Part shown: positions 1 to 57,883 of the stretch, one piece after another
How positions within the stretch are numbered: position 1 is the stretch's first letter
Layout of the letters: each line of letters starts with the position of its first letter
From: a virus
Lineage: Duplodnaviria > Heunggongvirae > Uroviricota > Caudoviricetes
Direction: 5' to 3' (one strand)
Length of the DNA stretch: 64,000 nt
IMG/VR virus record: IMGVR_UViG_3300033069_001204
Location: 1 to 64,000 of that record
Notes under the pieces: generated by a model
The model's input: the letters and a program-made list of their open reading frames with translations, nothing else
Database searches by the model: none
What the model was told of the DNA's origin: nothing
Program-made: the position numbers and the translations under genes

Positions 1-450
1 GACGCATTTGAGCTCATCCGCTATTGCCACGGACTCTCCAAGGTCCTTAGTGTATCCGGATTTTGGAGACACCGTTATCCAGTAATACATGCCGCAGTCT
101 CTGGCGAACTGCCTGAGCATCTTTGGATTGGTTCCATTGGTCTCCAGGCCGATCCAGACACAGGGCCACGCACCACGAATCGCGTTGATGATCGGGCTCA
201 GATTCTGGATAGTTGGCTCGCCTCCAGTCAGGACAATCATCGGAGGCTCCGACTTCATCGAACTCGGGATCAGGTCCGAGATGGACTTGACCAGATACGC
301 CTCATCGATGGTCAGATTCTTGGAATGATCCGTGTCGCAGAATGGGCACTCCAGATTGCATCCAGCGAAGCGCACAAATATTGCTGGCTTGCCGGAGTTG
401 TGCCCCTCTCCCTGAATGCTATAGAAAATCTCTGACACGTCGTAGATCAT
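1..450 (-). CDS. queE: 7-carboxy-7-deazaguanine synthase QueE (radical SAM), 3' end of gene beyond window start
   Basis: Hand translation of the minus strand from the ATG at 450..448 gives MIYDVSEIFYSIQGEGHNSGKPAIFVRFAGCNLECPFCDT...IVLTGGEPT. The CxxxCxxC cluster and the GGEP motif fit QueE. No stop codon before position 1. The ATG overlaps the queD stop (ATGA). Confidence 0.8.
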   Translation of the reverse strand, partial: MIYDVSEIFYSIQGEGHNSGKPAIFVRFAGCNLECPFCDTDHSKNLTIDEAYLVKSISDLIPSSMKSEPPMIVLTGGEPTIQNLSPIINAIRGAWPCVWIGLETNGTNPKMLRQFARDCGMYYWITVSPKSGYTKDLGESVAIADELKCV

Positions 451-845
451 ATCACATCATCCGTAATTTCCGCATAGCTATCGGAAGTCTCCGACACTCT
501 GACGCGGACCACTTTGCAGAATGGGACCTTGGCTTCGATGATCGCCTTCGTCATCCTGAAGATATGAATGGCCATATTCTCGGCCGTAGGAGCCCAATCC
601 CCTGGCAGGACATCATTCAGAAGGCGATGATCCAATTTGGATAGGACCTCATCCCATACGATCTTATCCAGGACTTTGAAGTCGATGATCATTCCTCCAT
701 TGCCACGTATCGCCTGGATTCCGGCAGTGGAAGCCACTTCGACCTCAACATTGGAGTTATGTCCATGCATATTGGCGCAGGGTCCCTTATAGTCGGGAAG
801 CCAATGGGCATAAGAGAATTCAAACTTGCGGGTTACGGAAATCAT
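447..845 (-). CDS. queD: 6-carboxy-5,6,7,8-tetrahydropterin synthase QueD (6-pyruvoyl-tetrahydropterin synthase family)
   Basis: 132 aa. FEFSYAHWLP...CANMHGHN matches the zinc-binding motifs of QueD/PTPS. Lies immediately upstream of queE, with start and stop overlapping. Confidence 0.85.
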   Translation of the reverse strand: MISVTRKFEFSYAHWLPDYKGPCANMHGHNSNVEVEVASTAGIQAIRGNGGMIIDFKVLDKIVWDEVLSKLDHRLLNDVLPGDWAPTAENMAIHIFRMTKAIIEAKVPFCKVVRVRVSETSDSYAEITDDVI

Positions 846-882: not shown

Positions 883-2499
883 TCACTTCAGATCCTTCCT
901 CTTGAAAGAATTCTGTTTTTTCTTCTTAATTCCCTCCAAATGCCAGAAGGAACTCAGGAAAGGCCGGCCTCTATGGAGGGCCTGGAGGACCTTGACGGAT
1001 TTCGTTCTATCGCATTCTCCATCCCTGACCATGAGCGGGGCCACTCGCATGATGCCCTCCACCTCCTCCCTATCAGTCCGATTCAAAGTCATCACGGCGG
1101 TGGCATGGGCATACTTGCTGGAAGCCTCGGTGAAGTCGCTCCTGTCCTGGAGTTCCTTATCTCCGAACATATTCTTTCCCTGAGTGGCGGTGATCACGCA
1201 GATGTGGCGGTCGAGAGACAGCCTGCGCAAAGCCAGCCACTTCTCATCCTCGCGTTCCCTCTTGTCCTTTCTCATGGTGGACGCCTCATCGGCCAGAATA
1301 TCCGCGTAGTCAATTATTACAATATCTGCGACAAAGTTTCTCGACACCTCCCACTCATCAAGAATGGAGCGAATTCTGCTTATGGATAGCTGCCTGCTGG
1401 CATGGCAGTCCAGCATGATTCTCTTGCCTTTGAATCCGCGATTGAGAGTATTCTGGCAGTCGCGGATCTCCCTCCAAGTCATGGGATCGACTTGCTCAGT
1501 GAGACGCCACCATGCCGCAGGCCTATAGGATTTGGGATAGTGCTTGCGACAGGCAGTGCATGGGACGTATTTGCGATTGCGCTGGACGTATTCTTTCAAT
1601 GGTTCATTGTCCTGTGGCTTGCCGCAACCAAACTCGCATGTCCTGAACTCCTCTCCGCATGAATCGTCCTGGTTGCTCATGCAGTCCATCACCGGCTCAT
1701 ATCTGGGAGAGCAGTATTTCCTCAGATCGGAACGGCCCACCATCCTAATTCCAATGCGTCGGCCCATCTGATTCTTGGACAGGTCTCCGCATTGGAACAA
1801 AGCCACGTTCCTGCGAGCCTTCAGACCCAGGAAGGCCAGCTCCGTCAGCATGAAAGTCTTGCCTGACTTCGGAGGGGCCTGGAATGCCAACAGGCTGTCC
1901 CTGACCAGAAACTCGTTGAGCAGCTCCCCCAGAGCTCCGGACAGCGTCATGAGCGGCTCGCTCTCCTCAGTGAACGCGTCTATGAAGAAGCTTCTATCCT
2001 CCATGATGGAGATGGATGAACTTGTCTCGGCAGCATGTCGGGTGAATGAGGTTATGACGTCCTCAGCCTGTTCTATGTCTCCAGATATGAGATGGCGATC
2101 CAGATCGGACTTGAGGGATTTCACCCTGCAGGTCCGCAAGTAGCTTCTCGCGCCTTCCAGGAAGTGAGCCACATTGAAATGGCCGTCCTCGAATTCAGAA
2201 TCCAGGGACTTCAATTGCTTCAGGATGATGGCGGCATCCTCTTCGGAGATCGCACCATCCTCAGCGGAGGTCATAAGTAGTTCCGAAATATCGGGGCCTG
2301 GGACCTGGCCATAGCGGTCATAGTATTTCAGACACCAGTCCGCCAATATCCTGACATTCTTGGATGGGATCTTGTCCACATCTATGGCATTGCGAATCCC
2401 AATCAGAAATTTCTCGGATGAGATCAGGCCAATTAGAAGCTTGCGTTCCCCGCCACCATCAAACGATACGGTCTTAATTGCCATCAGCGTCGTCTCCAA
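883..2499 (-). CDS. DnaB-like replicative helicase (RecA-fold ATPase) with an inserted Cys-rich segment
   Basis: 538 aa. Walker A APPKSGKTFMLTELA; Walker B-like VIIDYADIL; N-terminal DnaB-like helical domain. The Cys cluster CGEEFRTCEFGCG...CTAC suggests a zinc-binding insertion. Confidence 0.7.
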   Translation of the reverse strand: METTLMAIKTVSFDGGGERKLLIGLISSEKFLIGIRNAIDVDKIPSKNVRILADWCLKYYDRYGQVPGPDISELLMTSAEDGAISEEDAAIILKQLKSLDSEFEDGHFNVAHFLEGARSYLRTCRVKSLKSDLDRHLISGDIEQAEDVITSFTRHAAETSSSISIMEDRSFFIDAFTEESEPLMTLSGALGELLNEFLVRDSLLAFQAPPKSGKTFMLTELAFLGLKARRNVALFQCGDLSKNQMGRRIGIRMVGRSDLRKYCSPRYEPVMDCMSNQDDSCGEEFRTCEFGCGKPQDNEPLKEYVQRNRKYVPCTACRKHYPKSYRPAAWWRLTEQVDPMTWREIRDCQNTLNRGFKGKRIMLDCHASRQLSISRIRSILDEWEVSRNFVADIVIIDYADILADEASTMRKDKREREDEKWLALRRLSLDRHICVITATQGKNMFGDKELQDRSDFTEASSKYAHATAVMTLNRTDREEVEGIMRVAPLMVRDGECDRTKSVKVLQALHRGRPFLSSFWHLEGIKKKKQNSFKRKDLK

Positions 2500-4096
2500 T
2501 CAATCTATCATATTCCTTTTGAACGGCCCCTGACTTCAGCGCCTTGAAGCGGGACTCAAAGAATCCAGGGATGTCCATATTCTCATAATCTATTCTTGCG
2601 CTGGACATTGTCGCCAGGTCATCGAAGAGCTCCACAGTGAGCTTGGCATCCTTGTGGAACATTCCCAAATTGACATGCTCATAATCAAGGCAATTCTCCC
2701 TAATGAATTTGTTGATATATGAGAACGAAGCATCCCTGGCATGGGTCTTGTTGAACTTCCTGCTGCAGCCCTTCCAATATGGGCCTAGCTCATCCCTGAA
2801 CTGGCCAGGACATGCTTTAGGGTCTATGGCAAAACTGCCGTCCTCCTGTTCGCCATACGTGTTCTCATAGAGCAGGTCGATGAATTCCAGGACGCCCCAA
2901 TACCAGGCTCGGAACCCGGCATGGTCCTCCTCATTTCCGGTAATGCCTCCAGCCTTTTCGATTTGTATAGCGATGTTTTCAATCAAGTCCGGTTCCCTCT
3001 CCTGGACGAAGGGGAATGGGGAATCCTCGCTTACCTTTTTGAAGCATTCCAAAACATCCCCATTCCCAGTCCCCTTCCCAAGTCCGGATTTGGAGCGGCT
3101 CGAAACTCTGGGACGATAAAGAGTGGGGATTCCTTTCCCTGTGGAGTATGCTATGGTGGCGAGAATTTCCTCAACGGAGAAATCAGCCAGCCACTCAAGA
3201 ATGAGATTTCCATGGGACTTCAACAAAGCCGCTGTGATGGGGACCTTCCTGGACTTCGGAGCGGACTTATTCAATTCAGCCAATTGTTCAATCCAGTTAG
3301 ACAAAGCCTCTTTGATTTGCGGCCATGCGTCATGCTCTTGAAGCTTCAACGGAGATGCTTCGATTATATCATCCTTGGCATTCTCTCCTGATGGCAGTAT
3401 TCCGAGGCCTGAATTTTTTTCTTTCGAAGATCTTTTTATGTCAATAATATTTCTCGAAGAATGAGAGAATTTATTATTAATCTCTAGGGGGTTATATAAG
3501 GGGGGGACATTTTCAGGGGCCATTTTGGGGGTCTGCTTGTATCGTTTTGTATTCAGCTCCTGATTTCCGAATTTGAAAATTTTAAATTCGACCCCATTTT
3601 CCGAATTTGAAAATTTTAAATTCGACCTCAACTTCTCATCATTGAGAACGCTGGAAATATAATCCTGATTCACGGCTCCCATTCTCTCGTTCAGGACCTT
3701 GAAGTTCACCCTGAACCAAATGGCATTCATCTCGTCCCGCCAGTAGTCCAGAAGGTTTCCCGACACCGTATCTTTGGAGGCCCTGGAGGCTATGGAATGC
3801 AGGACGTTCCTGACCCGATGATATGAGAGATGAAGCTCTCCGCATAGAGTCCCGGCGTCGTGGGGAGTCAGGCCCATGCGAATATGGACAGGGGAGCCTC
3901 CTGTCGATAGGACCCTATTGAGGATGAAGGTCAGAAGGTAGGCCGCCTGGAGATCCCCATCGAGCATGTGGAGAATCAATTGGTCTATGATTATTGGCCT
4001 TCGGAGATTGAATTGCTGGAGAGCATCCATAGCAGCCTCAAAATAAATTCCCTGCTGGCTTCTGGTTGGGGGCCAACCCAATGAGATCCGTGCCAA
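2474..4096 (-). CDS. putative replication initiation / helicase-loading protein with an internal AT-rich iteron region
   Basis: 540 aa. Overlaps the start of the helicase gene. N-terminal wHTH-like region. The central low-complexity linker is encoded by AT-rich DNA carrying two 30-bp direct repeats, an architecture like lambda O with ori-lambda inside it. Confidence 0.4.
   Translation of the reverse strand: MARISLGWPPTRSQQGIYFEAAMDALQQFNLRRPIIIDQLILHMLDGDLQAAYLLTFILNRVLSTGGSPVHIRMGLTPHDAGTLCGELHLSYHRVRNVLHSIASRASKDTVSGNLLDYWRDEMNAIWFRVNFKVLNERMGAVNQDYISSVLNDEKLRSNLKFSNSENGVEFKIFKFGNQELNTKRYKQTPKMAPENVPPLYNPLEINNKFSHSSRNIIDIKRSSKEKNSGLGILPSGENAKDDIIEASPLKLQEHDAWPQIKEALSNWIEQLAELNKSAPKSRKVPITAALLKSHGNLILEWLADFSVEEILATIAYSTGKGIPTLYRPRVSSRSKSGLGKGTGNGDVLECFKKVSEDSPFPFVQEREPDLIENIAIQIEKAGGITGNEEDHAGFRAWYWGVLEFIDLLYENTYGEQEDGSFAIDPKACPGQFRDELGPYWKGCSRKFNKTHARDASFSYINKFIRENCLDYEHVNLGMFHKDAKLTVELFDDLATMSSARIDYENMDIPGFFESRFKALKSGAVQKEYDRLIGDDADGN
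3562..3627. repeat. two perfect ~30-bp direct repeats (tttccgaatttgaaaattttaaattcgacc) spaced 34 bp apart, in an AT-rich tract inside the initiator gene
   Basis: Read directly: 3564-3593 and 3598-3627 are identical. The surrounding 3400-3650 is AT-rich, unlike the ~55% GC of the flanks. Candidate iterons or origin. Confidence 0.7.
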
Positions 4097-4226
4097 ATCT
4101 CAAACCAGAGGCCAGCAGGGAATTCTTTGGATGATATCCATGTGGCGGCACGTTTGTTTCTGGTGGCGAGCCAGGGCCTATATTATGCCATGGACCCTGG
4201 AAGTTTTCAAGCTAGTTCCAAAAAGA

Positions 4227-6809
4227 TTATGGAATCCATAGGACATCGAAATCGGTCCAGCCTATCTCCTTCCCATGCCAGTAGAATCTCTTGGAGCCTT
4301 CGATTGTCATTACGCCACAATGCATGACCTGATATTTCATCAGCCCTATCTTGAATGGGGAATAGCTCACCACGAAGCTACAGGATGCCCCACTCAACTC
4401 CATCTCGCAGCGCTCCCCTGTCTCAGTCCGGATGATCGCCAGAGTCCCAGTAGAAGGCAGAGGCGATAGTTCACAGTATCTAGAACCCGTGATGTAGCCG
4501 ATCTGAGTCCATTTGGAATGTTTGGCATCGGTGGGCACTATGGTGAAGCCACCTAGGGTCTTTGATGTCCGACCCGCCCAATTGCCGGCCAGAGGTCCAT
4601 GCGGAATATGTAGGACTGGAATTTCCAGACATACATGGCTGGCCTTGAATCTGCTGTGAGCAAACTCGAAATCGGAGCCTCCTGCGTTGTGAAATGTCTC
4701 TGAGTAGATTGTCGGCATAGTCAGGCAGTTTGACTCTGTTCTGAACATCTGGAAGTATCCTACTGGATCGCTGTGTAGAAAAGCCACATCGTCTTTGTTC
4801 GATCGATCGTTCGTGTATGTAGCGAGCCATTCCTCCCTCCTATCCTCTGGGATATTGAAACGTCCTGCGAAGTATAGAACGTCCTTGTCATAATGTCGGG
4901 ACTCTAGTGTCTCTCTGAGATCATCAGGGAGGATACAGTCCGCATCAGTGAGAATGATGGTATCGCAGGCGGCCATCCCTCCCCACTCGATTCCGGCATT
5001 GATCATGGCTCCCTTATTGAAGGCGGCCCCATTCTTGTGGATGACTTCCATCCCCACAGGATGAGATATCACTCCCAGCATATTGCAGAGCTGCCGGGTC
5101 TGGGCATCCTCGTAGGAGGTCACGACGACCATCCTATCGAAATGCCTTTTGTTCAGCGGCAGGGTCCAGGCCAGCATGTCGCTATAGCCTGCGCAGACTA
5201 TGACACAGCCCAGGACCCCTAGAGGGTAGATCCCATCTTTTGGGGCTTTGGGCTCCTCCATATCCCTTGGAAGCATGCCATAGCTATAGACATCCAGGCC
5301 TGCCAGATGATAGAAATCAGAGACTCCAAGCACCCGACATTCGGTCTTTTTAGAAGCGAAGGAATTATGGGAGTCATGCCAGGCCCGGACGGATGCCTTC
5401 ATCTTGGCTTCGTGGGCATCCGAGGCGCAGAATATGATGCTGTCCGAGTAGTCGAGGACGTCAATGATGGTCTTGACCGGATGCCCGTCGATCTCCTTGC
5501 ATTTTGGATTGCTGTCCCATATCGCTTTGATATTCTTGGGTTCGGGATTGACTTCCAGCATGGTGCTCAGAAAGCGGCCGGCTCCATAGAGGACCACCGG
5601 CTCTGGCCTGGACTCCAGATCATCCCATATCGCCTTCAAGAATTTCTGGTAGCGTGAAGGTTCGCTATCCTTCCCTGAGTAGTCAAGCGTCACGATCTTA
5701 TCCCCCTCATAGTTATCTGGATATCCTTTGGCCGTAGGATGGATTAGGAACGCATTATCTCCCACAATATATTTGCAGCCAGGATTCAAAATGAGCTCTG
5801 CGACTTTCTTCTTGAGCTCATCTTTCATTGCATCAGTGAGAGCAGAAGACCCTGGCTCTAGCAGCCTCCATCCATAGGACTTGATGCTCTCCTCCGTCCC
5901 CGAGATTCTCACAGAGTTGTCGCCATCCGGGAGATAGGGCTCAATAGTCAGGCCGGGTTCCGGATAATCCTCTTTGCGGTATGCTCCAATTGGAAATACA
6001 CATGCTGCCTTCCTTTTTCGAATACCCATGGACTTGAGCCTGTCGGAATGCCATTTGGACACGTAGTCCATCTTATGGCTAGCCACAGTATGTGGGACCC
6101 TGAGCGGAGCCGAGCATAGCTCACAGAACTGAAGCTGCGCTCCGAATTCCTCCGGAGCCCTTTCCCACCAACCCTTTTCAACCTTCCATGCGACATCTCC
6201 AAATGGGGAGTTGTAGAGGATGTCGAGGGCTCCAGCCACTTCGCAGAAGTATGCTCCCTTCGGAGTGATGCTGGCGCTCCACATGTTCTGAATCCAGCAC
6301 GCGTCCCTGAGAGGAATCCATTCCTCATCGGAGATCCCGAAGTCCTTGCGACATCCCAAGAGCATCTGATGCCTGCCTTCATGGCTGTGGTCATTGATGC
6401 ATTGATATGGGAACACGTCCTGTATGAGTTCGAAGTGCTTCCGATATCCTGGACCTAGCGACGTCCACAGTCCACGTTTGGAAAGCAGGACATCGGAGAG
6501 ATGCTTATTGCGATAGGCCGCAAAGTCCTTGACGGCCTGGCGCATGGGCTTGAATGGAGGAGTATGGATCTTGTCTGCGTAGTATTTGACGAAGCTGTCG
6601 AACTTCGGATGGATGGTAGGCTCGCCTCCCATGATTCCGACCATGCCATGGAATCCCAGCATGGAGTCGACAGCCTTCCTGAACTGGCCCTCCTCAGCGA
6701 AGAATGGCTTCGAGTGCCTGCCACAGAACCTCGTGCAGTTTGAACAGGAGTGGGGACATGCATTTGTGAGTTCAATCTGGATGATCTTCTGCTCAGATGG
6801 AGACTTCAT
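4227..6809 (-). CDS. multidomain enzyme: N-terminal radical SAM domain + Rossmann-like middle domain + GT-A (family 2-like) glycosyltransferase domain + C-terminal domain of unknown function
   Basis: 860 aa. Residues 13-30 ELTNACPHSCSNCTRFCG (CxxxCxxC) and MGGEPT are radical SAM signatures. Mid-region YGAGRF has a Rossmann-like glycine motif. GT2-like VIVCAGYSDM...NKGAMINAGIEW...ILTDADCILPDD contains a DxD motif. Confidence 0.6.
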   Translation of the reverse strand: MKSPSEQKIIQIELTNACPHSCSNCTRFCGRHSKPFFAEEGQFRKAVDSMLGFHGMVGIMGGEPTIHPKFDSFVKYYADKIHTPPFKPMRQAVKDFAAYRNKHLSDVLLSKRGLWTSLGPGYRKHFELIQDVFPYQCINDHSHEGRHQMLLGCRKDFGISDEEWIPLRDACWIQNMWSASITPKGAYFCEVAGALDILYNSPFGDVAWKVEKGWWERAPEEFGAQLQFCELCSAPLRVPHTVASHKMDYVSKWHSDRLKSMGIRKRKAACVFPIGAYRKEDYPEPGLTIEPYLPDGDNSVRISGTEESIKSYGWRLLEPGSSALTDAMKDELKKKVAELILNPGCKYIVGDNAFLIHPTAKGYPDNYEGDKIVTLDYSGKDSEPSRYQKFLKAIWDDLESRPEPVVLYGAGRFLSTMLEVNPEPKNIKAIWDSNPKCKEIDGHPVKTIIDVLDYSDSIIFCASDAHEAKMKASVRAWHDSHNSFASKKTECRVLGVSDFYHLAGLDVYSYGMLPRDMEEPKAPKDGIYPLGVLGCVIVCAGYSDMLAWTLPLNKRHFDRMVVVTSYEDAQTRQLCNMLGVISHPVGMEVIHKNGAAFNKGAMINAGIEWGGMAACDTIILTDADCILPDDLRETLESRHYDKDVLYFAGRFNIPEDRREEWLATYTNDRSNKDDVAFLHSDPVGYFQMFRTESNCLTMPTIYSETFHNAGGSDFEFAHSRFKASHVCLEIPVLHIPHGPLAGNWAGRTSKTLGGFTIVPTDAKHSKWTQIGYITGSRYCELSPLPSTGTLAIIRTETGERCEMELSGASCSFVVSYSPFKIGLMKYQVMHCGVMTIEGSKRFYWHGKEIGWTDFDVLWIP

Positions 6810-6826
6810 TTCTATTATCCTTTCGT

Positions 6827-7747
6827 CTATTGGGGGCTTGGGGGCTTTTGAAGGGCTATAGGAGGATAGGGATCATGGGAGATGATCACTTCACCATATT
6901 TGTCGTTCGCTCCACAGGCTGCCGACTTGTGAGAGTTCCAGTCTATATATTTTATTCTATTCTGAGCAATGCGGACTGCCCATTCTGGAAAATACTCTGG
7001 AATAGGCAGCAACAGATCTGCCCCAATTCCTCGTAGATCGAGAGGCCTGAAACACATGCCATCGATTCCCCACAAAGTCTCAAGCGGCTTCATATCTGCG
7101 CCATTGAATGCCTGATGTAGAGCCAGGGCGACTCCTGGATGCTTGTTCCCTTCTATTGGGGGCCAGCCTTCGTATTCAGCGTTCTTCTCGATTTCCTCAG
7201 CATTCACTCCTGGGTCCGACATCTGGAAGCATAGATCGTCTCCAAGAATGAAGCCATCCACGCGGACCAGAATTTTGGCCATGGCGAGATCGGACAGACA
7301 CATCGAGCATTTGTGGGAGCCATCGATATAGACCAGATTGTAGATATTGCCCTGGAGCAAAGGCAGAGCCGATCTGCTGTCTCCATAGATGGTGGTTACC
7401 ATATCCCAGGCATTGGCCTTGCTGACGTTATATTCGAAGATGTGTCGATAGGCTTTCATCTCCTTGCCTGGAGCCCGATCCGCAATGTCCACGCAGGTGA
7501 GATGGCCATGTCCGTTATTGAACCTGCGGATCATCTCAATCCACATGAGGGCGGAGCCGCCGCCACGAGAGCCCACTTCCAGGATGTTCCAATACTGCCG
7601 CTCTTTCAGCAGTTTAGGGACAATGGAATAGAGCAGGGCATTGCGCTCAGGATTGAGAAGGACATCGAATTCCGAAGGCAGATAGTATCCGCCATTGGAG
7701 ATGACTTCAAGGAAATCATTTAGTATCATGGGAGGTCTCCACAGCAC
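6827..7747 (-). CDS. class I SAM-dependent O-methyltransferase, TylF/MycF (macrocin-O-MTase)-like, with a C-terminal extension
   Basis: 306 aa. ILEVGSRGGGSALMW matches the TylF-family motif E-x-G-V/S-x-x-G-G-S and is followed by an acidic VDIADR motif. Lies immediately downstream of the radical SAM/GT gene. Confidence 0.6.
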   Translation of the reverse strand: MLWRPPMILNDFLEVISNGGYYLPSEFDVLLNPERNALLYSIVPKLLKERQYWNILEVGSRGGGSALMWIEMIRRFNNGHGHLTCVDIADRAPGKEMKAYRHIFEYNVSKANAWDMVTTIYGDSRSALPLLQGNIYNLVYIDGSHKCSMCLSDLAMAKILVRVDGFILGDDLCFQMSDPGVNAEEIEKNAEYEGWPPIEGNKHPGVALALHQAFNGADMKPLETLWGIDGMCFRPLDLRGIGADLLLPIPEYFPEWAVRIAQNRIKYIDWNSHKSAACGANDKYGEVIISHDPYPPIALQKPPSPQ

Positions 7748-8021
7748 GCATAACAGAAGTAGCCAGAAAATGCTTAACGGCTCTCCCTATACGTAATTTA
7801 TCAAATAGTCCAAGGGGGATGTAGACTCTTTCCCAGCAAAGATGGTTCACAATGATCCAATCATCTGTTGAGCACATAAGCTCCATGGGCTTCATCATGT
7901 TCCGATAAAGAATGAGATGGTCCCATGGAAGCATTGGATCTTTACGAATTTCCCATTCAGGGATAGGACTTCTCAATGACTCCACAATGGAGTCGATCAT
8001 CTTTCTTTGAGCGGTTTTCAT
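7716..8021 (-). CDS. hypothetical protein (start adjusted to the internal ATG at 8021, which overlaps the upstream stop as ATGA)
   Basis: The protein-like part of ORF 7716..8210 begins at MKTAQRKMIDSIVESL. The upstream 63 residues are Arg/Ser-rich junk and overlap the neighbouring gene. Confidence 0.45.
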   Translation of the reverse strand: MKTAQRKMIDSIVESLRSPIPEWEIRKDPMLPWDHLILYRNMMKPMELMCSTDDWIIVNHLCWERVYIPLGLFDKLRIGRAVKHFLATSVMRAVETSHDTK

Positions 8022-13702: not shown

Positions 13703-14317
13703 TCAGCCCCCTACAAATCGGGTGATGTCCTTGAAGGCTCTGGTGCATTTCCTACAGCACCAGCCTTTTTTCATAAGCATCTTCCTGATGCATCCCCGAA
13801 TTTCCTTCTTGCTCATGCGCCCCGAGATGCCGAGGATTTCCGCAGGGGTCCCGAGCACCAGCGCGATGACCTCTCGCGTCTCATCTCCGAGCATCGCGAC
13901 GCGGTCATGGAAGTCCATTGAGATCTCATAGGGCGGCTGTCCCTCGTCCACCGCCTCCACTTCCGATCTGCGTTCCCCCTTCCATTTCCGGATATAGTCC
14001 GACATCTCTTTATTGAGCTTTAAGAATAGCAGGGTCCGGAATGATCCGGCATCCGGATTCCAACGCTTCAAGGCATCCATGAAAATTGAATTGCCTATGG
14101 AGTGGAGCTCGGATAGATCAAAAGAATAGGCACGGTGGAAATGTTCCGCCCGATTGTATATTATGCCAGCGTTCTCTGAGTAGAGTCTACAGGCGGTTGA
14201 CATGGATAAACCTCTCATAATAACACCACAGTTCAATAATGGCAGGGTCCTGCGCTTCGGCAGCCTGGTCATCATCGATGGTTGGTTGAATGCTCGTATA
14301 CGGGCCAACATTGGCAT
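13703..14317 (-). CDS. sigma-70-family RNA polymerase sigma factor (regions 2 and 4); true start probably an internal Met near 14203-14218
   Basis: IYNRAEHFHRAYSFDLSELHSIGNSIFMDALKRWNPDAGSFRTLLFLKLNKEMSDYIRKWK resembles region 2.1-2.4. C-terminal REVIALVLGTPAEILGISGRMSKKEIRGCIRK is a region-4 HTH. Confidence 0.55.
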   Translation of the reverse strand: MPMLARIRAFNQPSMMTRLPKRRTLPLLNCGVIMRGLSMSTACRLYSENAGIIYNRAEHFHRAYSFDLSELHSIGNSIFMDALKRWNPDAGSFRTLLFLKLNKEMSDYIRKWKGERRSEVEAVDEGQPPYEISMDFHDRVAMLGDETREVIALVLGTPAEILGISGRMSKKEIRGCIRKMLMKKGWCCRKCTRAFKDITRFVGG

Positions 14318-18398: not shown

Positions 18399-19220
18399 CT
18401 ACCTGATTGGAATCATGGCCGATGGATTGTTTCCCAGCAGGAGAGTCTGCGGAGCTTGTCCATTCCACTTACGAATGGCCTCCAAGAGGATCATTGATTG
18501 TGACTGCTTCAAGGCTTCGCTCTGAATTCTCAGCGCTTCGGCCTCGCCCTTTGCTTTCGCTATCGTGGCTTCGGCTTCCTGCTGCGCCTTCTCCACAGCA
18601 TACTTGGCCGCCAGGGCCTCCTGTTCCTTCACCGTCTTTTGCTCTATTGCCTTCTCCAGGGCGTCTGTAAAATCGATGTTGGTTATGTTGACGTCAGAGA
18701 TATTAAGGATGTCGCCAACCGCTTTCTTCAGGCTAGACATTGCTGCTGCCCGGACTTCGTCGCGCTTCTTTACAATCTGATCGGCGCGATACTGGGAAGT
18801 AATCTGCTTTAAAGCCTCCTGCATTCTGGGCGATACCAAAGTCTTGAATACGCTATCTCCGGTATTGTATTCCCGGAACATGGAACATACTCGATTTTCA
18901 GGTATCGACATCAGGACGTTGTAGGAGATCTTCACAACCTGGGCGTCAGCCGTAAAGCATTCTGTGGAGTCAGACTGCATCCCGCTCTTGATGGAGACAT
19001 GATAGATTGTGGTCCAGGGAAGGGCGAAGCCAAAGCCTTCCCCAATTGCCCGGTCATCCATCTTGCCTAGGGTCACGGCTATCCCGCGTTCGCCGGGCTG
19101 GATGGTGTAGAACATCGAACAGCCTCCAATTAGGAGGAACAGGCCGATGACGAAGATGGCGATTATTGCTGAGATGGCGATTATTGCTGAGACTGATTTC
19201 ATGTTGAGTCCTTTATCCAT
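18399..19220 (-). CDS. SPFH/band-7 (prohibitin/HflC-like) membrane protein
   Basis: 273 aa. N-terminal TM helix, GERGIAVTLGK band-7 signature, C-terminal Ala/Glu/Lys coiled coil. Contains an 18-bp tandem duplication encoding AIIAISAIIAI. Confidence 0.7.
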   Translation of the reverse strand: MDKGLNMKSVSAIIAISAIIAIFVIGLFLLIGGCSMFYTIQPGERGIAVTLGKMDDRAIGEGFGFALPWTTIYHVSIKSGMQSDSTECFTADAQVVKISYNVLMSIPENRVCSMFREYNTGDSVFKTLVSPRMQEALKQITSQYRADQIVKKRDEVRAAAMSSLKKAVGDILNISDVNITNIDFTDALEKAIEQKTVKEQEALAAKYAVEKAQQEAEATIAKAKGEAEALRIQSEALKQSQSMILLEAIRKWNGQAPQTLLLGNNPSAMIPIR

Positions 19221-43883: not shown

Positions 43884-46800
43884 TCAAAGCTCCGCTGTTA
43901 AGTCTATATATGTTGTGGCATCCAAAGTGGAAAAATAGAAATTGCCTGCTGCTGTAACTGTCGCATAGATATTAACTGAATTGTCTCCAGTAGTTCCTAC
44001 TGAGGGTTGGCCGCAATTACTTACACTCCAAGTTCCTGTTTTAGTCGCAGTAGGAGCTGCTCGCATCTTAGGAAACGCCATTGAAAAGCCAGATATTCCT
44101 GAAGATGATCCATAGCCTCTTAACCAAACATTAGCCAGACGATTAAAATACCGCCTACATTGTTGCGTATCTATGTCGGGATCGCATGGTATGAATTGCG
44201 TCGCGGTCTGGCCTTTCTCCAGCTTGACATTTGCTACGTAGAAAGTATTGGACGTCGAGTCCATGGCGTTGACTTGATTTGCAGTTCCATAAATTGCCGC
44301 TGCAGCAGTTGTCCAGGCATCGAGTGTGGATGTCTGGAAGTTGCTGCCGCATGCCAGGACAAAATTGACTCGTAAAGATACTGTGTTGTCCGTAGAAAAT
44401 GTTGGGCCGGACACATCAAGCGTTACGGGGAATGAGAAATACGTCCAAGTATTGGCGTCCGTTATCTCGCATTCATGCACAAAACTATAGCTGTTTCCGA
44501 CGTCAGCTAGGACAGCACAATAGGTTCCTACTTTGGACGCCCGAAGCCAAAACGACAAGGTCACATAGCCACCAAGGAATGGAGATATAATTGTGCCCTC
44601 AATACGTTGCTGCACTCGATAGACATCTGTCGAGGCTATTGACGTGTCAGCAGTAGTCACGCTGACCTCAAGTGATGTGGTGGAGGATACTCTGGCTTCT
44701 GTATAAGATGGGACGGTGGTGCTTTGCGATAGCGTCACTAGTCCTGCCCCTACATATGTCCACTGCCAACAATCCAACGCATACTGGTTATTGGCTGTTA
44801 TGGCTGTGGAAGTCCCACGCTGGGCTATTCTAAAACTCCCGTTCCTCATGATATTGTCATTAATGACGGACAAGTCCAGCGGAGTGACATACTCTACAGC
44901 AGGGCGGTCGATGATCAATAATGTATTGGCGTCAAGAACTATGGCAATAGGCTTGAGATAGTGCCCCTCAGTCGTGGTTCCAGTCTCTGTCATATCTCCT
45001 GCAGACGTATCGGATACATACAGCACAGGACCCGTGAATCCATGGGACGTATAGGTGTAGCGGCCGATTGGGCAGAATACAAAATTATTGGCATCCACAA
45101 CAGAGGACACCAGACCCACAGACTCGACAGATTCTATGCTGTCGGCCTGCGCCAGCGCGTAGCTGCCATCTGCCAGTTTAGCCACAGCTTGATTGACAGA
45201 AAAACCATGGCTTGTGGAAGCGACTGCAACGGCTAAGGTATCCCCGCTTGCGCCTGCGTTATCGTCCACATACTTCTTGTTCGCCGCTTGATAGTCTGTA
45301 GTAGGCGCAGAACTTGGCGTGATGGGGAAGCTTGAGAACGTCTTGATGCCACCCACAGTCTCATCGCCGGAAGTAGCAACTGCGCCAGCTTGAGCCGCCG
45401 TTACGCTATGCGGATTCGATGTGCTGGAAATATGGTTTTGAATATTTGCATTAGCGGGTTCGTAGACGCCGCTATGCGTATGGTTTCCCGCTGCTGCTTG
45501 CGCTGAACCTGTCCCCAATGTATGATGTAGAGAGCTTGCGCTTGAATCAGTATCGGGACTCTCATGCGTGTTGGCTTGCACCAGCTTGTTCGAGCTATGG
45601 TCATGATCTAGCGGCGTCCTAGCGTCGCTGTTGCGGGAATCATTGTCAGTTACATATTTATTGGATGATGATGGCGTTCCGCTTGTCCCTGCCAATGCGG
45701 CTTTTTCATCGCTGCTTGGAATGTTGCCATGTGCATAAGTTGATTCATGCGTAGAGACGGCGCTGGAAGCTGCCCCGCTTGCATCTGCTCCAACATCGGA
45801 AGCAGATAATGTAATATCGCTGGAAAGAGCCTTACTATTGATTGTCCGTGTGCTTGGGACTATGCCGCCGTGGGCTGTCGTGGTGTAGCCCGTGTGGGTA
45901 TTGAGATTGCCTTGGACAGTGGCGGCGGCTCCGCTGGCGTCTGCGCCTACGTCGGAGTAGGTCAAAGCTATTCCATCGATCTTATAGCTCTGTCCGCTCG
46001 GGATATTGACAGAGCCTGAATCATCCGCAGTAACCAGGGAGTTCTGTATAAGCTTCCCTGTGGTGGAATCGAAGCGGACTATGGCATTATCAGTAGAAGA
46101 CGCAGGTCCGGAAACATCGCCTAATCCCGATACGGAATCGTCCACATACTTCTTTGTAGAAGCCTGATAGTCTGTAGTCGGAGTGGGGACCAGCGGAGAG
46201 CTGCTGAATGTCTTTATTCCAGCTATTGTCTCATTGCCGCTAGTAGCCACAGCCCCAACGTCAGATGCGGCTAATGTGATGTCGCTAGACAGAGCCTTGC
46301 TATTGACTGTGCGGCTAGTAGGGACCGCTCCAGCCTGCGCCGCTGTCACGCTATGTGGATTGCTTGTGTTGTTTATATGGGTGGTAAGATTGCTCTGGAC
46401 TGCGGAGGCCGCTCCAGCTGCGTCGAAGCTCGCGCTAGACAGACCGCCGTCCTTGATAAGCTTTCCTGTTATACCGTCGAATTGGACTAGGTTACCATCG
46501 GTGGAGTTTGCAGGTCCATACACGTCTCCGGTCCCTGCCGGCATATCGTAGCTGAAGTTGCCAGCACCGTCATTCTTAAGGTAGCCTACGGCATCTGCGA
46601 TATTGGCGACGTCGCCAGTTTTCTGGAAGACTGAAGAAACCGCTCCGCCATTTTCATCCACATACTTCTTTGTGGCCACCTGATAGTCAGTTGTTGGCGT
46701 AGGGACTATAGGAGAGCTAGAAAAGGTCTTTATGCCAGCAACGGTCTCATTGCCCGTTGTAGCCACTGCTCCAGCCTGCGCGGCAGTCACTTCATGCGGA

Positions 46801-47072
46801 TTGGCGACATCACTGAGGTGAATGGTCAGATTGGACTGGACGGTTGCTGCGGCTCCACTGACATCAAAACTAGATGGCGAGTATCCTGAGTCTTTTAGCG
46901 CTTTGCCAGTGGTCCCGCTGAAGGATACAAAGTTCCCATCTACGGAACTTGCCGGACCGATGACTGTTCCATTAGAGAGGCCTATCAGAGTGGTCTGGAT
47001 GACTGCCACAGGTCCCATCGAAGCAGACTGGATGACTGTGACTGGATTTAGAGTCATGGTGAGCTCAGGCAC
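43884..47072 (-). CDS. long tail fibre protein with three copies of the phage tail-fibre repeat
   Basis: 1062 aa. The repeat (V/L)TAAQAGAV(A/P)T-GNETVAGIKTFSSSPIVPTPTTDYQVATKKYVD occurs three times, each followed by DSG/GASG. Ser/Thr/Ala-rich. C-terminal globular domain. Confidence 0.8.
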   Translation of the reverse strand: MPELTMTLNPVTVIQSASMGPVAVIQTTLIGLSNGTVIGPASSVDGNFVSFSGTTGKALKDSGYSPSSFDVSGAAATVQSNLTIHLSDVANPHEVTAAQAGAVATTGNETVAGIKTFSSSPIVPTPTTDYQVATKKYVDENGGAVSSVFQKTGDVANIADAVGYLKNDGAGNFSYDMPAGTGDVYGPANSTDGNLVQFDGITGKLIKDGGLSSASFDAAGAASAVQSNLTTHINNTSNPHSVTAAQAGAVPTSRTVNSKALSSDITLAASDVGAVATSGNETIAGIKTFSSSPLVPTPTTDYQASTKKYVDDSVSGLGDVSGPASSTDNAIVRFDSTTGKLIQNSLVTADDSGSVNIPSGQSYKIDGIALTYSDVGADASGAAATVQGNLNTHTGYTTTAHGGIVPSTRTINSKALSSDITLSASDVGADASGAASSAVSTHESTYAHGNIPSSDEKAALAGTSGTPSSSNKYVTDNDSRNSDARTPLDHDHSSNKLVQANTHESPDTDSSASSLHHTLGTGSAQAAAGNHTHSGVYEPANANIQNHISSTSNPHSVTAAQAGAVATSGDETVGGIKTFSSFPITPSSAPTTDYQAANKKYVDDNAGASGDTLAVAVASTSHGFSVNQAVAKLADGSYALAQADSIESVESVGLVSSVVDANNFVFCPIGRYTYTSHGFTGPVLYVSDTSAGDMTETGTTTEGHYLKPIAIVLDANTLLIIDRPAVEYVTPLDLSVINDNIMRNGSFRIAQRGTSTAITANNQYALDCWQWTYVGAGLVTLSQSTTVPSYTEARVSSTTSLEVSVTTADTSIASTDVYRVQQRIEGTIISPFLGGYVTLSFWLRASKVGTYCAVLADVGNSYSFVHECEITDANTWTYFSFPVTLDVSGPTFSTDNTVSLRVNFVLACGSNFQTSTLDAWTTAAAAIYGTANQVNAMDSTSNTFYVANVKLEKGQTATQFIPCDPDIDTQQCRRYFNRLANVWLRGYGSSSGISGFSMAFPKMRAAPTATKTGTWSVSNCGQPSVGTTGDNSVNIYATVTAAGNFYFSTLDATTYIDLTAEL

Positions 47073-52487: not shown

Positions 52488-53411
52488 TTAGGCCACCCCG
52501 GTGCTTCCTATTGCGAAGAACGGGAAGGTCGGGAGTCCGGCTCCACGGGCCTCAACGCCCCAGATCAGGGAGTTGTAGGTGAACGCGCGGTCGGAGTTGA
52601 ACGGAGTCAAGGCGATCATCTCCGGGGCTTTCCTCTTCTGATACAGCGTGGGCTTGATGCCGCCGCCGATGTTGAAGAGATACCAAGCCGTCTCGGAGTA
52701 GCCGTCGAGCCACGGATTGACAACCAGCTGGGCGCTGCCTTCGTATTGGTTTGTCGCTCCGAAGTTGTTGAACTCGTTCTCGACGATGGCCTGTCCGGCG
52801 TTCTCAAGGGTCGTGGGGACCATGAGAACGAGCTTGGGAGTCGTGTTGACCGGAATGGCCGGGCTATCCTTGTCAGCCTGGACCCTGAACCCCTTCATGG
52901 CGGACTTGGCCTCGCCGAAGTTGGCGGGAGTCAGAGCGCCGGTCCTGAGGTTGTCGATCGTGGAAAGGCCGATGGTGTGGGTGTCGGCAAACCAAGCGAG
53001 CCCGTCGTAGGTCTTGGTTGTGGTGAACCCGTTGCCAAGGATCTCCGCCATGATCTGGTCGGGGAGCAACTCGGCATTGCGGCCCATCATGGACGCCAGC
53101 ATGGAATACTGGCTGATCTGCTCGTCTTCGAACTTGATCCTGGGGATCTCGATGGTGTCCTCGTAGGTGTCGTTCGCGACGGCGACGTCCTGTGTCTGGA
53201 CGTTCCTGAACAGCCTCGGACTGTTGATGACCAGCTTCCTCATCGCGGGGATGAAGCTCAGCCACGAGTATACGTTCTGGTAGCTGACGGACGGGACTTC
53301 CTCGTAGATGTCCTTGAAGGCTCCGGGACCTGCGGACTTGATGCCGTCCTGGAACTTGGTCAGAAGACCAGAGTTGACTATGTCGTAGTCACCCCTATTG
53401 TGAATATCCAT
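52488..53411 (-). CDS. major capsid protein, Mu gpT-like
   Basis: 307 aa. N-terminal LLTKFQDGIKSAGPGAFKDIYEEVPSVSYQNVYSWLSFIPAMRKLVINSPR parallels the Mu major head subunit N-terminus. Strong terminator downstream. Confidence 0.65.
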   Translation of the reverse strand: MDIHNRGDYDIVNSGLLTKFQDGIKSAGPGAFKDIYEEVPSVSYQNVYSWLSFIPAMRKLVINSPRLFRNVQTQDVAVANDTYEDTIEIPRIKFEDEQISQYSMLASMMGRNAELLPDQIMAEILGNGFTTTKTYDGLAWFADTHTIGLSTIDNLRTGALTPANFGEAKSAMKGFRVQADKDSPAIPVNTTPKLVLMVPTTLENAGQAIVENEFNNFGATNQYEGSAQLVVNPWLDGYSETAWYLFNIGGGIKPTLYQKRKAPEMIALTPFNSDRAFTYNSLIWGVEARGAGLPTFPFFAIGSTGVA

Positions 53412-55415: not shown

Positions 55416-57881
55416 TTATGCAGCCACGCCCAGGCCTTGGAGACTGGCGGCGATGGTCTGCAACTGGGCCTGCAGCGTGGACTTGGTTGCCGGATCTTGT
55501 TCGTTATCCATCTGATTCTGGAGATCAGCCTGCTGCTTGAGAAGGTCCTCCTTCTGCTTCTGCCTGGATATCGCGAACTCGGATATCTCGTTGTTGATTC
55601 GCGCTTCGTCCCCACTATGCTCCCTCATCGACTGAATCATGTCTGGGGACATCCCGACATTGGCAGCCCTGGATTCCCAGCCCTGCGGACCTTTGGCCTT
55701 GGAGAAGTCAGCTATCTCGGCATTGAGCCTCTCAGCGTCATTGCCGTGCTGCGCCAGGGTCTGTATCTGCTCTGAGGACATCCCGGCATCCTGGGCCTTC
55801 TTCACCCAGTCAGGGATGGCGGGCTTCTGGTCCAGGGCCGCCATCTCTGTCTTGCCGGCCTCCGCCTTCCTGTCCTTGATCTCCTCTATCTTGGATAGGA
55901 TGACGTCCTTCTCCGCCTGGGTCTTCGCTTTGCCCAGCGAGTCATAGGCGGCATTGAGCTCGTTGTTGATTTGGGCCGATGCCGGAACTGCTGCGCCATG
56001 GGGATTGGGGACGACTCCGCTTGCGGACTTTATGGTCGCCAGAGCCGTGGCCATGTCCATTGCCCCCGATGCCACCTTATCCTTGACTCCAGCCATGACC
56101 GATTCATCGACGCCATACTTGGAAGCCAGATTCTTGACGGTATCGACCTGGATGGACTTGAACTTCGCGATGTCCTCAACAGCCTTTCCGGCATCCGGAG
56201 ACGGCTTCTGATTGAGCTCTCCACGAGCCAGGGAGGCAGCCGCATTGTCTTTCATGTGCTGGGACTCGGCATCCTTGGAAGCCTTGGCCTCTGCATCCTT
56301 CTGCATGGCGGCAACCATCATTGGATCCTCAGCCAGGGATGGGTTTTCAGCAAGCAAGTCCGCTCTGGCCTTCTGCTCCTTCTCGGAGAGGATGGCCCTG
56401 TCCTTCTTGGCCGCCGCCAGCTTTCCACTGAGGGTGGACATCTCCGCGACCCTCTTCAGGTATGCCGGAGACTTCTGATCCTTCCCAGTGGACTTGTCAT
56501 ATAGGCTTGGGCTCACGCCTTTGCTGTAGGGCTTCTCGACATTCTTCAGCTCATTGAGCCTGGCCTCCATCGTCTTGATGCTGGCATCCGCGGCATCGAG
56601 GGCGGTCCTGGAATTCCTCCAGGATGTGGAACCCTCTGATTGGGCCTCAAGGGCCTGGACGGCACGAGATCTCGCATCGATCTCGTGCTTGGCTATGAGC
56701 ATCTTCTTGGGATCATCGATGGTCTTGGTCTCTTCAATCAGGTTCTCCAGATCCCTTCTGGCCTGGGACGCCTTGAAGTCGGCAGCCAGCATGGCGGGCA
56801 GCTTGTCCTTGGAGACCTTTCCATACCGGTCGACCTTGGAGTCCCATCCCGAACGTGGGGTATAAGCCAGGACCCTTCCAAGATTGGGATCATTCGTCTT
56901 CGCAGCGGCATCGACGATATCCCCCACTCTGGCATCGAAGGCATCCTTCCCTATGGTCTGGGCTCTCGACTTCAGAAGCTCAGTCTTGACAAGCTCCTGC
57001 TGCCAGGGCTGCAGCGACTTCATGGCATTGCCGAGAAGCTCGCCTCTCCTCTCCTGGATATCCGCAGGGGACTTAGGATTCATGGCTGCGGAGATCATGG
57101 CGGCCGGGCCTGCGGCCTTCAAGCTTTCCATGGTCTGGCCCTGGGATTCCTTCTTGCCAGTGGCATCCAGCGGAGCATCGAGCTCCTTGAGCCTGGCTTT
57201 GACAGCGGCAATATCCGCCACGGAGGACTTCCCAGATTCCAGAGCCTTGGCATCTTGCTGGATGGCCTCAAATGCTTTCCGGATGTCCCCGGCGTTGGGG
57301 GCCTTCCTCTCCTCCGCCACCTTGACACGTCCAGCCATATCGGCCAGGCCCTCCATCAAAGCGGAATGGGCCTTGACGCTCTCATCCTGGACCCTCTCCT
57401 CTTTCTTGGAGGCGAGATTGTCCTTGCGCTCTTGCTCCTTCTGGACCTTCTCCTTCTCCTTCTCCTGGACTTCGGAGAGCCGTTTCTCCTCAGCCTCGGC
57501 CTCCCTCGTGATTATTGGCATGATGGTCCGCTTCCAGGCCACCGCCTCGAAACCTTCGTTGGCTCCTGGACCAGCCTCTGACATATACATGGAGGCGTCA
57601 TGCTTGACCTTGAGGTCCTTGATCTGGCCCCGCATCTCCTTAATATGGTTCATCATGTCCAGACGCTGCTGCGGGGTCCCCACGATCATATCGGAAGACT
57701 TCTGGAGCTTCTCTATCCTAGAGGACAGGTCGGACATCTGCTTCGCATAGCCCTCCATGTCCTTCTTGGCGGCGTCCTTCGCCTTTTCAATCTCGGGCTT
57801 GAGCCTGGAGGTCAACTCCTTCAAGGCCTCCTCTGATTCGCCGCCATGCAGATACTCGTATGCCAGCTTTGAGAGTTCCAT
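55416..57881 (-). CDS. 821-aa Ala/Lys/Glu-rich coiled-coil protein (head-associated; scaffold or internal-protein candidate)
   Basis: Long low-complexity helical sequence with no enzymatic motifs seen. Lies between the giant gene and the protease. Confidence 0.5.
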   Translation of the reverse strand: MELSKLAYEYLHGGESEEALKELTSRLKPEIEKAKDAAKKDMEGYAKQMSDLSSRIEKLQKSSDMIVGTPQQRLDMMNHIKEMRGQIKDLKVKHDASMYMSEAGPGANEGFEAVAWKRTIMPIITREAEAEEKRLSEVQEKEKEKVQKEQERKDNLASKKEERVQDESVKAHSALMEGLADMAGRVKVAEERKAPNAGDIRKAFEAIQQDAKALESGKSSVADIAAVKARLKELDAPLDATGKKESQGQTMESLKAAGPAAMISAAMNPKSPADIQERRGELLGNAMKSLQPWQQELVKTELLKSRAQTIGKDAFDARVGDIVDAAAKTNDPNLGRVLAYTPRSGWDSKVDRYGKVSKDKLPAMLAADFKASQARRDLENLIEETKTIDDPKKMLIAKHEIDARSRAVQALEAQSEGSTSWRNSRTALDAADASIKTMEARLNELKNVEKPYSKGVSPSLYDKSTGKDQKSPAYLKRVAEMSTLSGKLAAAKKDRAILSEKEQKARADLLAENPSLAEDPMMVAAMQKDAEAKASKDAESQHMKDNAAASLARGELNQKPSPDAGKAVEDIAKFKSIQVDTVKNLASKYGVDESVMAGVKDKVASGAMDMATALATIKSASGVVPNPHGAAVPASAQINNELNAAYDSLGKAKTQAEKDVILSKIEEIKDRKAEAGKTEMAALDQKPAIPDWVKKAQDAGMSSEQIQTLAQHGNDAERLNAEIADFSKAKGPQGWESRAANVGMSPDMIQSMREHSGDEARINNEISEFAISRQKQKEDLLKQQADLQNQMDNEQDPATKSTLQAQLQTIAASLQGLGVAA

Positions 57882-57883
57882 GA

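Follow-up and report, generated by a model that had tools for sequence, protein, structure and literature searches.

The DNA examined here is a stretch of 64,000 nucleotides (the window, by which we mean the whole of it) from a virus of the Caudoviricetes, positions 1 to 64,000 of the IMG/VR record IMGVR_UViG_3300033069_001204. Our subject is a pair of genes on its minus strand, one encoding a protein in which a radical S-adenosylmethionine (SAM) domain is fused to a glycosyltransferase (GT), hereafter rSAM-GT, and the other encoding a methyltransferase:

4227..6809, minus strand: rSAM-GT gene, 860 amino acids (aa), from its open reading frame (ORF) and translation; the coordinates include the stop codon
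6827..7729, minus strand: methyltransferase gene, 300 aa from ATG 7729 (306 aa if translation begins at GTG 7747), Pfam Methyltransf_24

ATG 7729, with a GGAG 8 nt upstream, is the likely start of the methyltransferase; the frame is open back to GTG 7747, and an independent gene call on a Logan contig of identical sequence likewise gives 300 aa. The ATG of the rSAM-GT gene is preceded by an AAGGA ribosome-binding site and lies 17 nt past the methyltransferase stop, a spacing that makes the two a tight gene pair. Identical copies of the 860-aa protein are present on a JGI contig (88,985 bp) and on the Logan contig. Composition over the pair showed no anomaly, promoter and terminator scans of its flanks performed no better than on shuffled sequence, and no tRNAs were found in the window. 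A sigma-70-like promoter match lies at 4210-4182 (10 of 12 positions, with a TG extension), just upstream of the next gene at 2474-4096, in a region whose matches are no more numerous than those of shuffled sequence.

A first-pass annotation of this DNA had described the 860-aa protein as a fusion of radical SAM, Rossmann-like and GT-A domains next to a methyltransferase, and the ORFs, motifs and folds confirm this description. The motifs that it had picked out (CPHSCSNC, GGEPT, a DxD in the form DAD, and EVGSRGGGSAL) are all present, and the domain boundaries that it had given for the 860-aa protein are about right when compared with the structural model and the alignments. The protein is organized as follows:

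5880..6809, minus strand: aa 1-310, radical SAM core and twitch-like region, with CX3CX2C at 18-25 (CPHSCSNC), GGEPT at 61-65 and four invariant cysteines
5310..5642, minus strand: aa ~390-500, core of a Rossmann-like insert (VVLYGAGR...DSNP...GHPV), PglD_N-like, from the AlphaFold2 (AF2) model
4560..5222, minus strand: aa ~530-750, GT2-like glycosyltransferase domain of GT-A fold, from the fold and the DAD at 622-624
4230..4559, minus strand: aa ~751-860, beta-rich C-terminal extension, from predicted strands of mixed confidence

In the radical SAM domain, C18, C22 and C25 are invariant in alignments of 40 and 64 homologs, as are the residues from G61 to T65, and the CX3CX2C motif predicts that the domain cleaves SAM. 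Besides these three cysteines exactly four others, 171, 189, 229 and 232, are invariant in the aligned family; they fit a single predicted Cys4 auxiliary cluster like that of BtrN. The domain is modelled with high confidence as a partial TIM barrel that carries the GGE-type motif, and its best structural matches are the twitch sugar and cyclitol dehydrogenases SpeY and BtrN, with BlsE also near. Profile searches gave less: PF04055 scores 21.3 bits on the 860-aa protein, below its gathering cutoff of 29.5, and no Pfam family is above threshold. We therefore assign the protein to the radical SAM enzymes by motifs and fold, because the family is too divergent for the PF04055 profile. NCBIfam returned weak matches of the radical SAM part to SPASM-type maturases, the BFVD search of viral structures returned generic radical SAM matches alone (TM-score <= 0.38), and comparison of the whole protein with the PDB by sequence gave noise only. 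The Kyte-Doolittle maximum over a 19-residue window is 1.65, at the first strand of the GT domain, and no strongly hydrophobic stretch is present.

BtrN, which defines the twitch enzymes (PMC10114671), oxidises an alcohol group of a cyclitol, giving a ketone, and has a Cys4 auxiliary cluster (PMC10337720). The phage domain shares with SpeY (PDB 7WZV, spectinomycin) and BtrN (PDB 4M7S and 4M7T, butirosin) an N-terminal CX3CX2C followed by four further cysteines, and these two enzymes are its closest structural relatives, with weak profile matches pointing in the same direction. The sequences are, however, only about 12-15% identical, with E-values of 0.07-0.33 that are not significant. SpeY and BtrN are stand-alone enzymes from aminoglycoside clusters of actinomycetes and bacilli, whereas the domain described here is fused to a GT and occurs in phages and polysaccharide loci. 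The secondary-alcohol oxidation carried out by SpeY and BtrN is for the 860-aa protein a presumed activity.

The GT domain has the Rossmann-like GT-A fold. Its DAD lies within LTDADC, and D622 and D624 are invariant in 20 homologs, in an alignment of the C-terminal part built from trimmed homolog sequences. The structural matches are GT2 enzymes that act on polysaccharides and proteins, with zero DNA glycosyltransferases among them. PF00535 scores 17.1 bits, below its gathering cutoff of 23.3, which many homologs pass. Compared with the GT2 enzymes SpsA, K4CP chondroitin polymerase, WrtF, SunS and TarP, to which it is 9-16% identical and below the Pfam gathering score, the domain has a conserved signature of its own (NPG..YY, P.GYFQLF and H..HG...NW.G) and differs in being covalently joined to a radical SAM domain. 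We know of no characterised GT that is joined in this way.

Between the radical SAM and GT domains lies an insert of 215 aa in all, which is specific to the 860-aa protein and a few relatives. Its core is modelled with strands alternating with helices at a predicted local distance difference test score of about 70-85. An exhaustive search of 1.84 billion representative proteins found five weak relatives of the insert; they match PglD_N, the C-terminal domain of Methyltransf_14 or CoA_binding, within multi-GT or rSAM-SPASM proteins, and the insert is therefore a module of the nucleotide-sugar-enzyme type. The beta-rich tail of 110 aa is common to few homologs (P0003, P0019, P0071, P0083, P0093 and P0104) and possibly binds the acceptor. 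Neither aa 320-530 nor aa 520-860, used as a query of its own, gave useful homologs.

The partner gene belongs to Methyltransf_24 (PF13578; E 1.8e-14, 55 bits against a cutoff of 26.3), and its glycine-rich SAM motif is EVGSRGGGSAL. Weaker matches were to CmcI/rhamnosyl O-methyltransferases (PF04989, E 0.006, and NF045824, E 3e-4); TylF (PF05711) was absent from its Pfam matches at E <= 0.01. Of the earlier proposal of a TylF/MycF-type sugar O-methyltransferase, then, the class I methyltransferase with its EVGSRGGGSAL motif stood, and the TylF family had to give way to Methyltransf_24.

The 860-aa protein belongs to a large family. In a protein collection clustered at 90%, 926 relatives (clusters) were found at E <= 0.001, the top 120 all below 1e-98. 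The conserved core is the radical SAM domain, at about 50% identity, and about 85 of the 119 top matches continue from it straight into a GT-A domain of the same type; in other members there are additional GT2 domains, DUF5672 or, as in P0119, a Methyltransf_24 domain fused at the C terminus. The source names of these proteins are "radical SAM protein", "glycosyltransferase" or "hypothetical" only. Searching 50,697 deposited phage genomes by tblastn with the radical SAM domain or the methyltransferase found no relative, nor did megablast of window positions 4000-8000 match any deposited phage. None of the solved structures matches the family significantly in sequence, and literature searches found no report of rSAM-GT fusions, of deazaguanine glycosylation or of twitch dehydrogenases in glycan loci. 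The first-pass annotation had called the system undescribed, and its uncharacterised status stands, with no member of the family characterised.

To see the company that the family keeps, we collected 51 other IMG/VR loci with true family members and 10-kb flanks (52 counting the locus of this phage, L001), and counted the Pfam families encoded by 142 flanking genes of 34 non-redundant loci. Methyltransf_24 was the commonest neighbour (15), followed by GT2 (10), further radical SAM proteins (7, including 3 SPASM) and cytidylyltransferases (3); hexapeptide acyltransferases, UDP-GlcNAc 2-epimerase and GDP-mannose dehydratase were also found, as were terminase, portal, tail-completion and Mu-F proteins. 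Epimerase/dehydratase and capsid genes, too, are neighbours of viral copies. Each replication or DNA-modification family had fewer than two members among the 142. A relative of the methyltransferase, recognised with an iterated hidden Markov model, is fused to the gene or lies next to it in the same orientation in 17 of the 52 loci, mostly within 1.3 kb, and one more lies 1.9 kb off, giving 18 of 52 in all with L001 included. Methyltransf_24 adjoins the gene in L155, and in L154, L085 and P0002 a methyltransferase of the Methyltransf_23/11 type stands beside it instead.

The genome module in which the cassette resides varies from phage to phage. In L085 and L155 it follows the tail genes and precedes early or lysogeny-type genes, in L154 it lies between terminase and a P22-type portal, and in L007-L010 it adjoins terminase, while in L019, L033, L035, L039 and L040 it is found among NeuB, UDP-GlcNAc 2-epimerase and GT2 genes. 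T7-like contigs carry a stand-alone twitch radical SAM gene of 297 aa, lacking both GT and methyltransferase, between a portal/308-aa gene and the major capsid gene; the IMG/VR contigs concerned are L022-L026, L030-L032, L034, L038 and L044, and a radical SAM enzyme is not usually encoded at such a place. P0002, to which the 860-aa protein is most closely related, is also the closest of the few matches that share the insert (44% identity over aa 368-754). On its contig (ENA ERZ1426850, 11,904 bp) the P0002 gene is downstream of a dCMP deaminase gene and a PF18909 gene and upstream of a Toprim-DnaB primase-helicase gene, neighbours that hint at a phage manipulating dG or dC pools.

Among 143 genes flanking bacterial members in 17 GTDB genomes, which include Anaerotruncus, Sporofaciens, Phaeospirillum, Desulfovibrio, Selenomonadaceae and Lachnospiraceae, we counted 18 GT2, 11 NAD-epimerase/dehydratase, 7 NTP_transferase, 4 dTDP-sugar isomerase and 5 GT1/GT4 proteins together with several methyltransferases; Rml-type genes are among these neighbours. 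On long metagenomic contigs and in a metagenome-assembled genome the gene is surrounded by GT1, GT2, GT4, GT47-like, sulfotransferase, pyruvyl-transferase, capsule-synthesis, epimerase/dehydratase and rSAM-SPASM genes. In the metagenomic locus L153 (6387-12541) an rSAM-GT of 901 aa comes directly after the Wzm/Wzt ATP-binding cassette (ABC) transporter genes, with a Methyltransf_24 gene two genes downstream, a layout resembling that of loci in which terminal sugar methylation caps O-antigen chains. Judged by their gene content, the bacterial loci are surface-polysaccharide assembly loci. Residence among genes for GTs, nucleoside diphosphate (NDP)-sugar synthesis and export is thus true of the bacterial members and of part of the phage members. 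Tgt, QueC and thymidylate-synthase-type families were found neither among the 142 viral nor among the 143 bacterial neighbours. A link to flagellin glycosylation, raised by L081 and L083, was rejected, flagellin being adjacent in one bacterial locus only.

In the window itself all genes from about 1 to 30 kb are on the minus strand. Followed along the transcript, the operon comprises ATP-dependent ligase, Pyr_excise glycosylase, small ORFs, an extracytoplasmic function (ECF)-sigma-like protein, SNF2 helicase and primase, then nine small ORFs, the methyltransferase, the 860-aa protein, a 518-aa protein, a DnaB-like helicase, QueD and QueE, and continues past the window with a 216-aa protein, QueC, FolE, a nucleoside-deoxyribosyltransferase-like protein, a DpdA-like transglycosylase (phrog_887, E 2e-55) and a sliding-clamp-like protein. 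The placement of the pair in the replication operon, 3.4 kb from queD/queE, had been noted before and holds in plus-strand coordinates; the direction then assigned to it does not, since everything here is on the minus strand, and along the transcript the pair comes after ligase, SNF2 and primase and before the 518-aa protein, the DnaB-like helicase and queD/queE.

The left window edge cuts queE, and QueC, FolE and the DpdA-like gene follow just past it. By its gene content the phage clearly has a complete gene set for 7-deazaguanine DNA modification, spread over window positions 1-845 (minus strand) and L001 15965-20825 of the same contig. FolE in this set is a protein of 310 aa whose cyclohydrolase part covers residues 129-309 only; the nucleoside 2-deoxyribosyltransferase-like and DpdA-like proteins have 133 and 348 aa, and the 216-aa ORF lies between QueE and QueC. 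A thymidylate-synthase-like protein or hydroxymethylase had no match in about 70 window ORFs searched against Pfam or PHROGs (some against only one library) or in the L001 genes, a negative that covers these ORFs and genes, not the whole 88,985-bp contig. No nucleotide kinase was matched in the scanned window ORFs.

Taken together, the pair is best read as a self-contained, horizontally mobile sugar-tailoring cassette of methyltransferase and rSAM-GT that stands outside the deazaguanine pathway. The cassette probably adds a methylated sugar, which it tailors radically, to an acceptor other than DNA, either a protein or a glycan of the cell envelope. Starting from the observed motifs, folds, fusion, family membership, methyltransferase partnership and neighbourhoods, we infer a chemistry, an order of steps and an acceptor as follows. 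The GT-A domain, with a metal bound by its DxD, would transfer a sugar from a host nucleotide-sugar to the acceptor, probably aided by the PglD_N-like insert in binding the nucleotide-sugar. The twitch radical SAM domain would cleave SAM reductively at the CX3CX2C cluster and abstract a hydrogen from a sugar carbon, and the electron would pass to the second, four-cysteine cluster, so that a secondary alcohol would become a ketone, the reaction of SpeY and BtrN, or a related radical change would take place. The sugar so oxidised could be the transferred one or one on the acceptor, and the Methyltransf_24 enzyme would then methylate the product. Phage copies beside capsid, portal and tail genes suggest a virion protein of the phage as acceptor; the "moron" positions after tail genes, like the bacterial loci, suggest instead the alteration of a host surface polysaccharide that serves as receptor. 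The outcome would be an altered virion surface or an altered host surface during infection. A glycan pathway carried as cargo had been offered in the first pass as the alternative, and the bacterial loci, the sugar-gene neighbours and the GT2 matches make it the better supported reading.

Known systems provide partial parallels for both kinds of acceptor. As in the virion glycosylation of mycobacteriophage capsids and tails and in PBCV-1 A64R, the GT is a virus-encoded soluble GT-A protein often found beside structural genes, several family members adjoining portal, capsid or tail genes, and A64R itself is a weak match of the family profile (E 0.1). Pairs of mycobacteriophage GTs have been read as serving capsid glycosylation (PMC11256854). 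The present family differs in having no relatives in the 50,697 deposited phage genomes. To our knowledge, none of the virion glycosylation systems has a radical SAM component. For the cell envelope the parallel is WbdD-type capping, the terminal sugar methylation of ABC-transporter-dependent O-antigen synthesis. L153 recalls it, with its gene directly after Wzm/Wzt and with Methyltransf_24 and many GTs nearby, but neither a kinase nor a coiled-coil ruler domain is present, nor any sign of chain-length control.

Several points weigh against a non-DNA acceptor and the chemistry proposed for it. The chemistry is drawn from about 12% identity to SpeY and from similarity of fold. The window copy does not reside among GT, NDP-sugar or export genes; its neighbours are replication genes, the cassette being inside the replication operon between primase and helicase, and no window ORF scanned matched an enzyme of sugar-nucleotide synthesis. 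P0002, between dCMP deaminase, the dGTP-diphosphohydrolase-like PF18909 gene and primase-helicase, has the placement expected of a DNA-modifying enzyme. Lastly, the comparison with que/dpdA neighbourhoods used BLASTP at E 1e-4 and 10-kb flanks.

These same placements are what favours a role in DNA modification, in which the cassette would glycosylate and methylate a base of the phage DNA, a 7-deazaguanine derivative or another, and thereby evade host restriction. We hold this to be improbable, although the pair is inside the replication operon, 3.4 kb from queD/queE and on one contig with the FolE/QueD/QueE/QueC/DpdA-like set, its closest relative is also surrounded by nucleotide-metabolism and replication genes, and the 860-aa protein lacks any strongly hydrophobic stretch of the kind that points to a membrane segment. 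Co-occurrence with dpdA/queC in related phages, which the first-pass annotation had proposed as a check, was not seen: homologs of QueC, QueD, QueE, FolE and the DpdA-like protein were present within 10 kb in 0 of the 51 other viral loci, and Tgt, QueC and thymidylate-synthase-type families are missing from the 142 viral and 143 bacterial neighbours. No hydroxymethylase or nucleotide kinase was matched in the scanned window ORFs, which leaves DNA glycosylation without its usual hydroxyl-bearing acceptor; preQ0-type bases have no hydroxyl to offer. Family members reside in bacterial polysaccharide loci, and GT2 enzymes acting on glycans and proteins are what the GT domain resembles in structure. 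What was first proposed, a hitherto undescribed hypermodification of DNA tied to the deazaguanine genes, is accordingly not supported, and it is weakened by an outcome that its authors had themselves named as counting against it: the radical SAM part groups with SPASM/twitch enzymes, and the GT with the GT2 enzymes of polysaccharides and proteins. The resemblance to the alpha- and beta-GTs of T4 and to the hydroxymethylpyrimidine systems lies in a phage-encoded GT among replication genes. T4 DNA glucosyltransferases have the GT-B fold and none appears among the structural matches of the GT domain; T4-type systems need a hydroxymethylase, for which the window scans gave no match, and the rSAM-GT family shows no linkage to DNA-modification genes. 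With the phage 7-deazaguanine pathway (FolE-QueD-QueE-QueC-DpdA) the cassette shares the contig, the direction of transcription and a distance of 3.4 kb, but in all other viral and bacterial loci examined it occurs without these genes. The tailoring enzymes that we know of in that pathway are not glycosyltransferases. In our weighing, position is the sole argument for a DNA target, and the replication-gene placements in the window and in P0002 may not be two independent observations. That the cassette was recruited to the replication module in just this lineage, to put a radically oxidised, methylated sugar onto a DNA base, seems to us very unlikely.

Two further explanations were weighed. If the cassette belonged to a small-molecule pathway, it would make or alter a free glycoside or nucleotide-sugar (aminoglycoside-like, nucleoside-like or of the NDP-sugar pool) and decorate no macromolecule. 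This is unlikely, even though the nearest solved structures, SpeY, BtrN and BlsE, have small-molecule substrates in antibiotic pathways, enzymes that modify nucleotide-sugars typically carry a module like the PglD_N-like insert, and the cassette is a compact unit of two genes: the bacterial loci, with many GTs and an ABC exporter, are for polysaccharide assembly and are not antibiotic clusters, and around the phage copies we saw no genes for aminotransferases, cyclitols or resistance. The radical SAM domain could alternatively modify a side chain of a protein or peptide, in the manner of anSME or the SPASM enzymes, for the GT to glycosylate that residue. The weak NCBIfam matches to SPASM-type maturases, the peptide S-glycosyltransferase SunS among the GT matches and the stand-alone radical SAM gene that adjoins the capsid gene in T7-like contigs would agree with this. 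The family conserves the cysteines for one auxiliary cluster, as in twitch enzymes, and not the 7-8 of SPASM proteins, no partner resembling a precursor peptide was noticed, and the bacterial contexts are sugar pathways, all of which make such maturation a doubtful prospect, about as improbable as a DNA target.

Some other genes of the window deserve mention. The protein encoded between the cassette and the DnaB-like helicase (2474-4096, minus strand; 518-540 aa) has no Pfam, PHROG or NCBIfam match and could, by its position, be a replication initiator or helicase loader. The early/replication region also encodes an SPFH/Band-7 protein (18399-19220, minus strand; E 8e-26) and the ECF-type sigma-factor-like protein (13703-14317, minus strand), the latter a weak match. 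One small window ORF, among 40 scanned in a pool, matches the Acb2/Tad1 hairpin domain (PF24729, E 1.2e-4) and could encode an anti-CBASS or anti-Thoeris sponge. Directly upstream of the genes for head protease and major head protein are two very large ORFs of 821 and 1958 aa (55416-63760, minus strand), for which the PHROG library, the only one searched, gave no match; they may encode internal virion or ejection proteins. The major capsid protein is encoded at 52488-53411. A 1062-aa protein (43884-47072, minus strand) matches the lower-baseplate domain BppL_N (PF18338, E 1.6e-11) and is probably a receptor-binding or tail-fibre protein.

Each part of the cassette (class I methyltransferase, twitch radical SAM domain, GT-A domain) is of a known kind; what is uncharacterised is the fusion of rSAM and GT together with its methyltransferase. 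This combination, a twitch radical SAM domain joined to a GT-A domain and usually partnered by a methyltransferase, defines a large unnamed family. The family is common to uncultivated phages and bacterial surface-polysaccharide loci, it has no Pfam family of its own, and no isolate phage was found to carry it. For research on DNA modification the locus is a caution, since the mere position of a GT in a replication operon beside que genes is no evidence that DNA is glycosylated; were the cassette of the window and P0002 lineage nevertheless to act on DNA, this would be the first case of a DNA hypermodification made by fused radical SAM and glycosyltransferase domains. The family is of relevance to radical SAM and glycan enzymology and to phage surface biology. 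If the proposed chemistry is correct, its product would be an oxidised, methylated sugar not yet described, and a portable phage cassette of this kind would bear on how phages alter their own surface or the receptors of their hosts.

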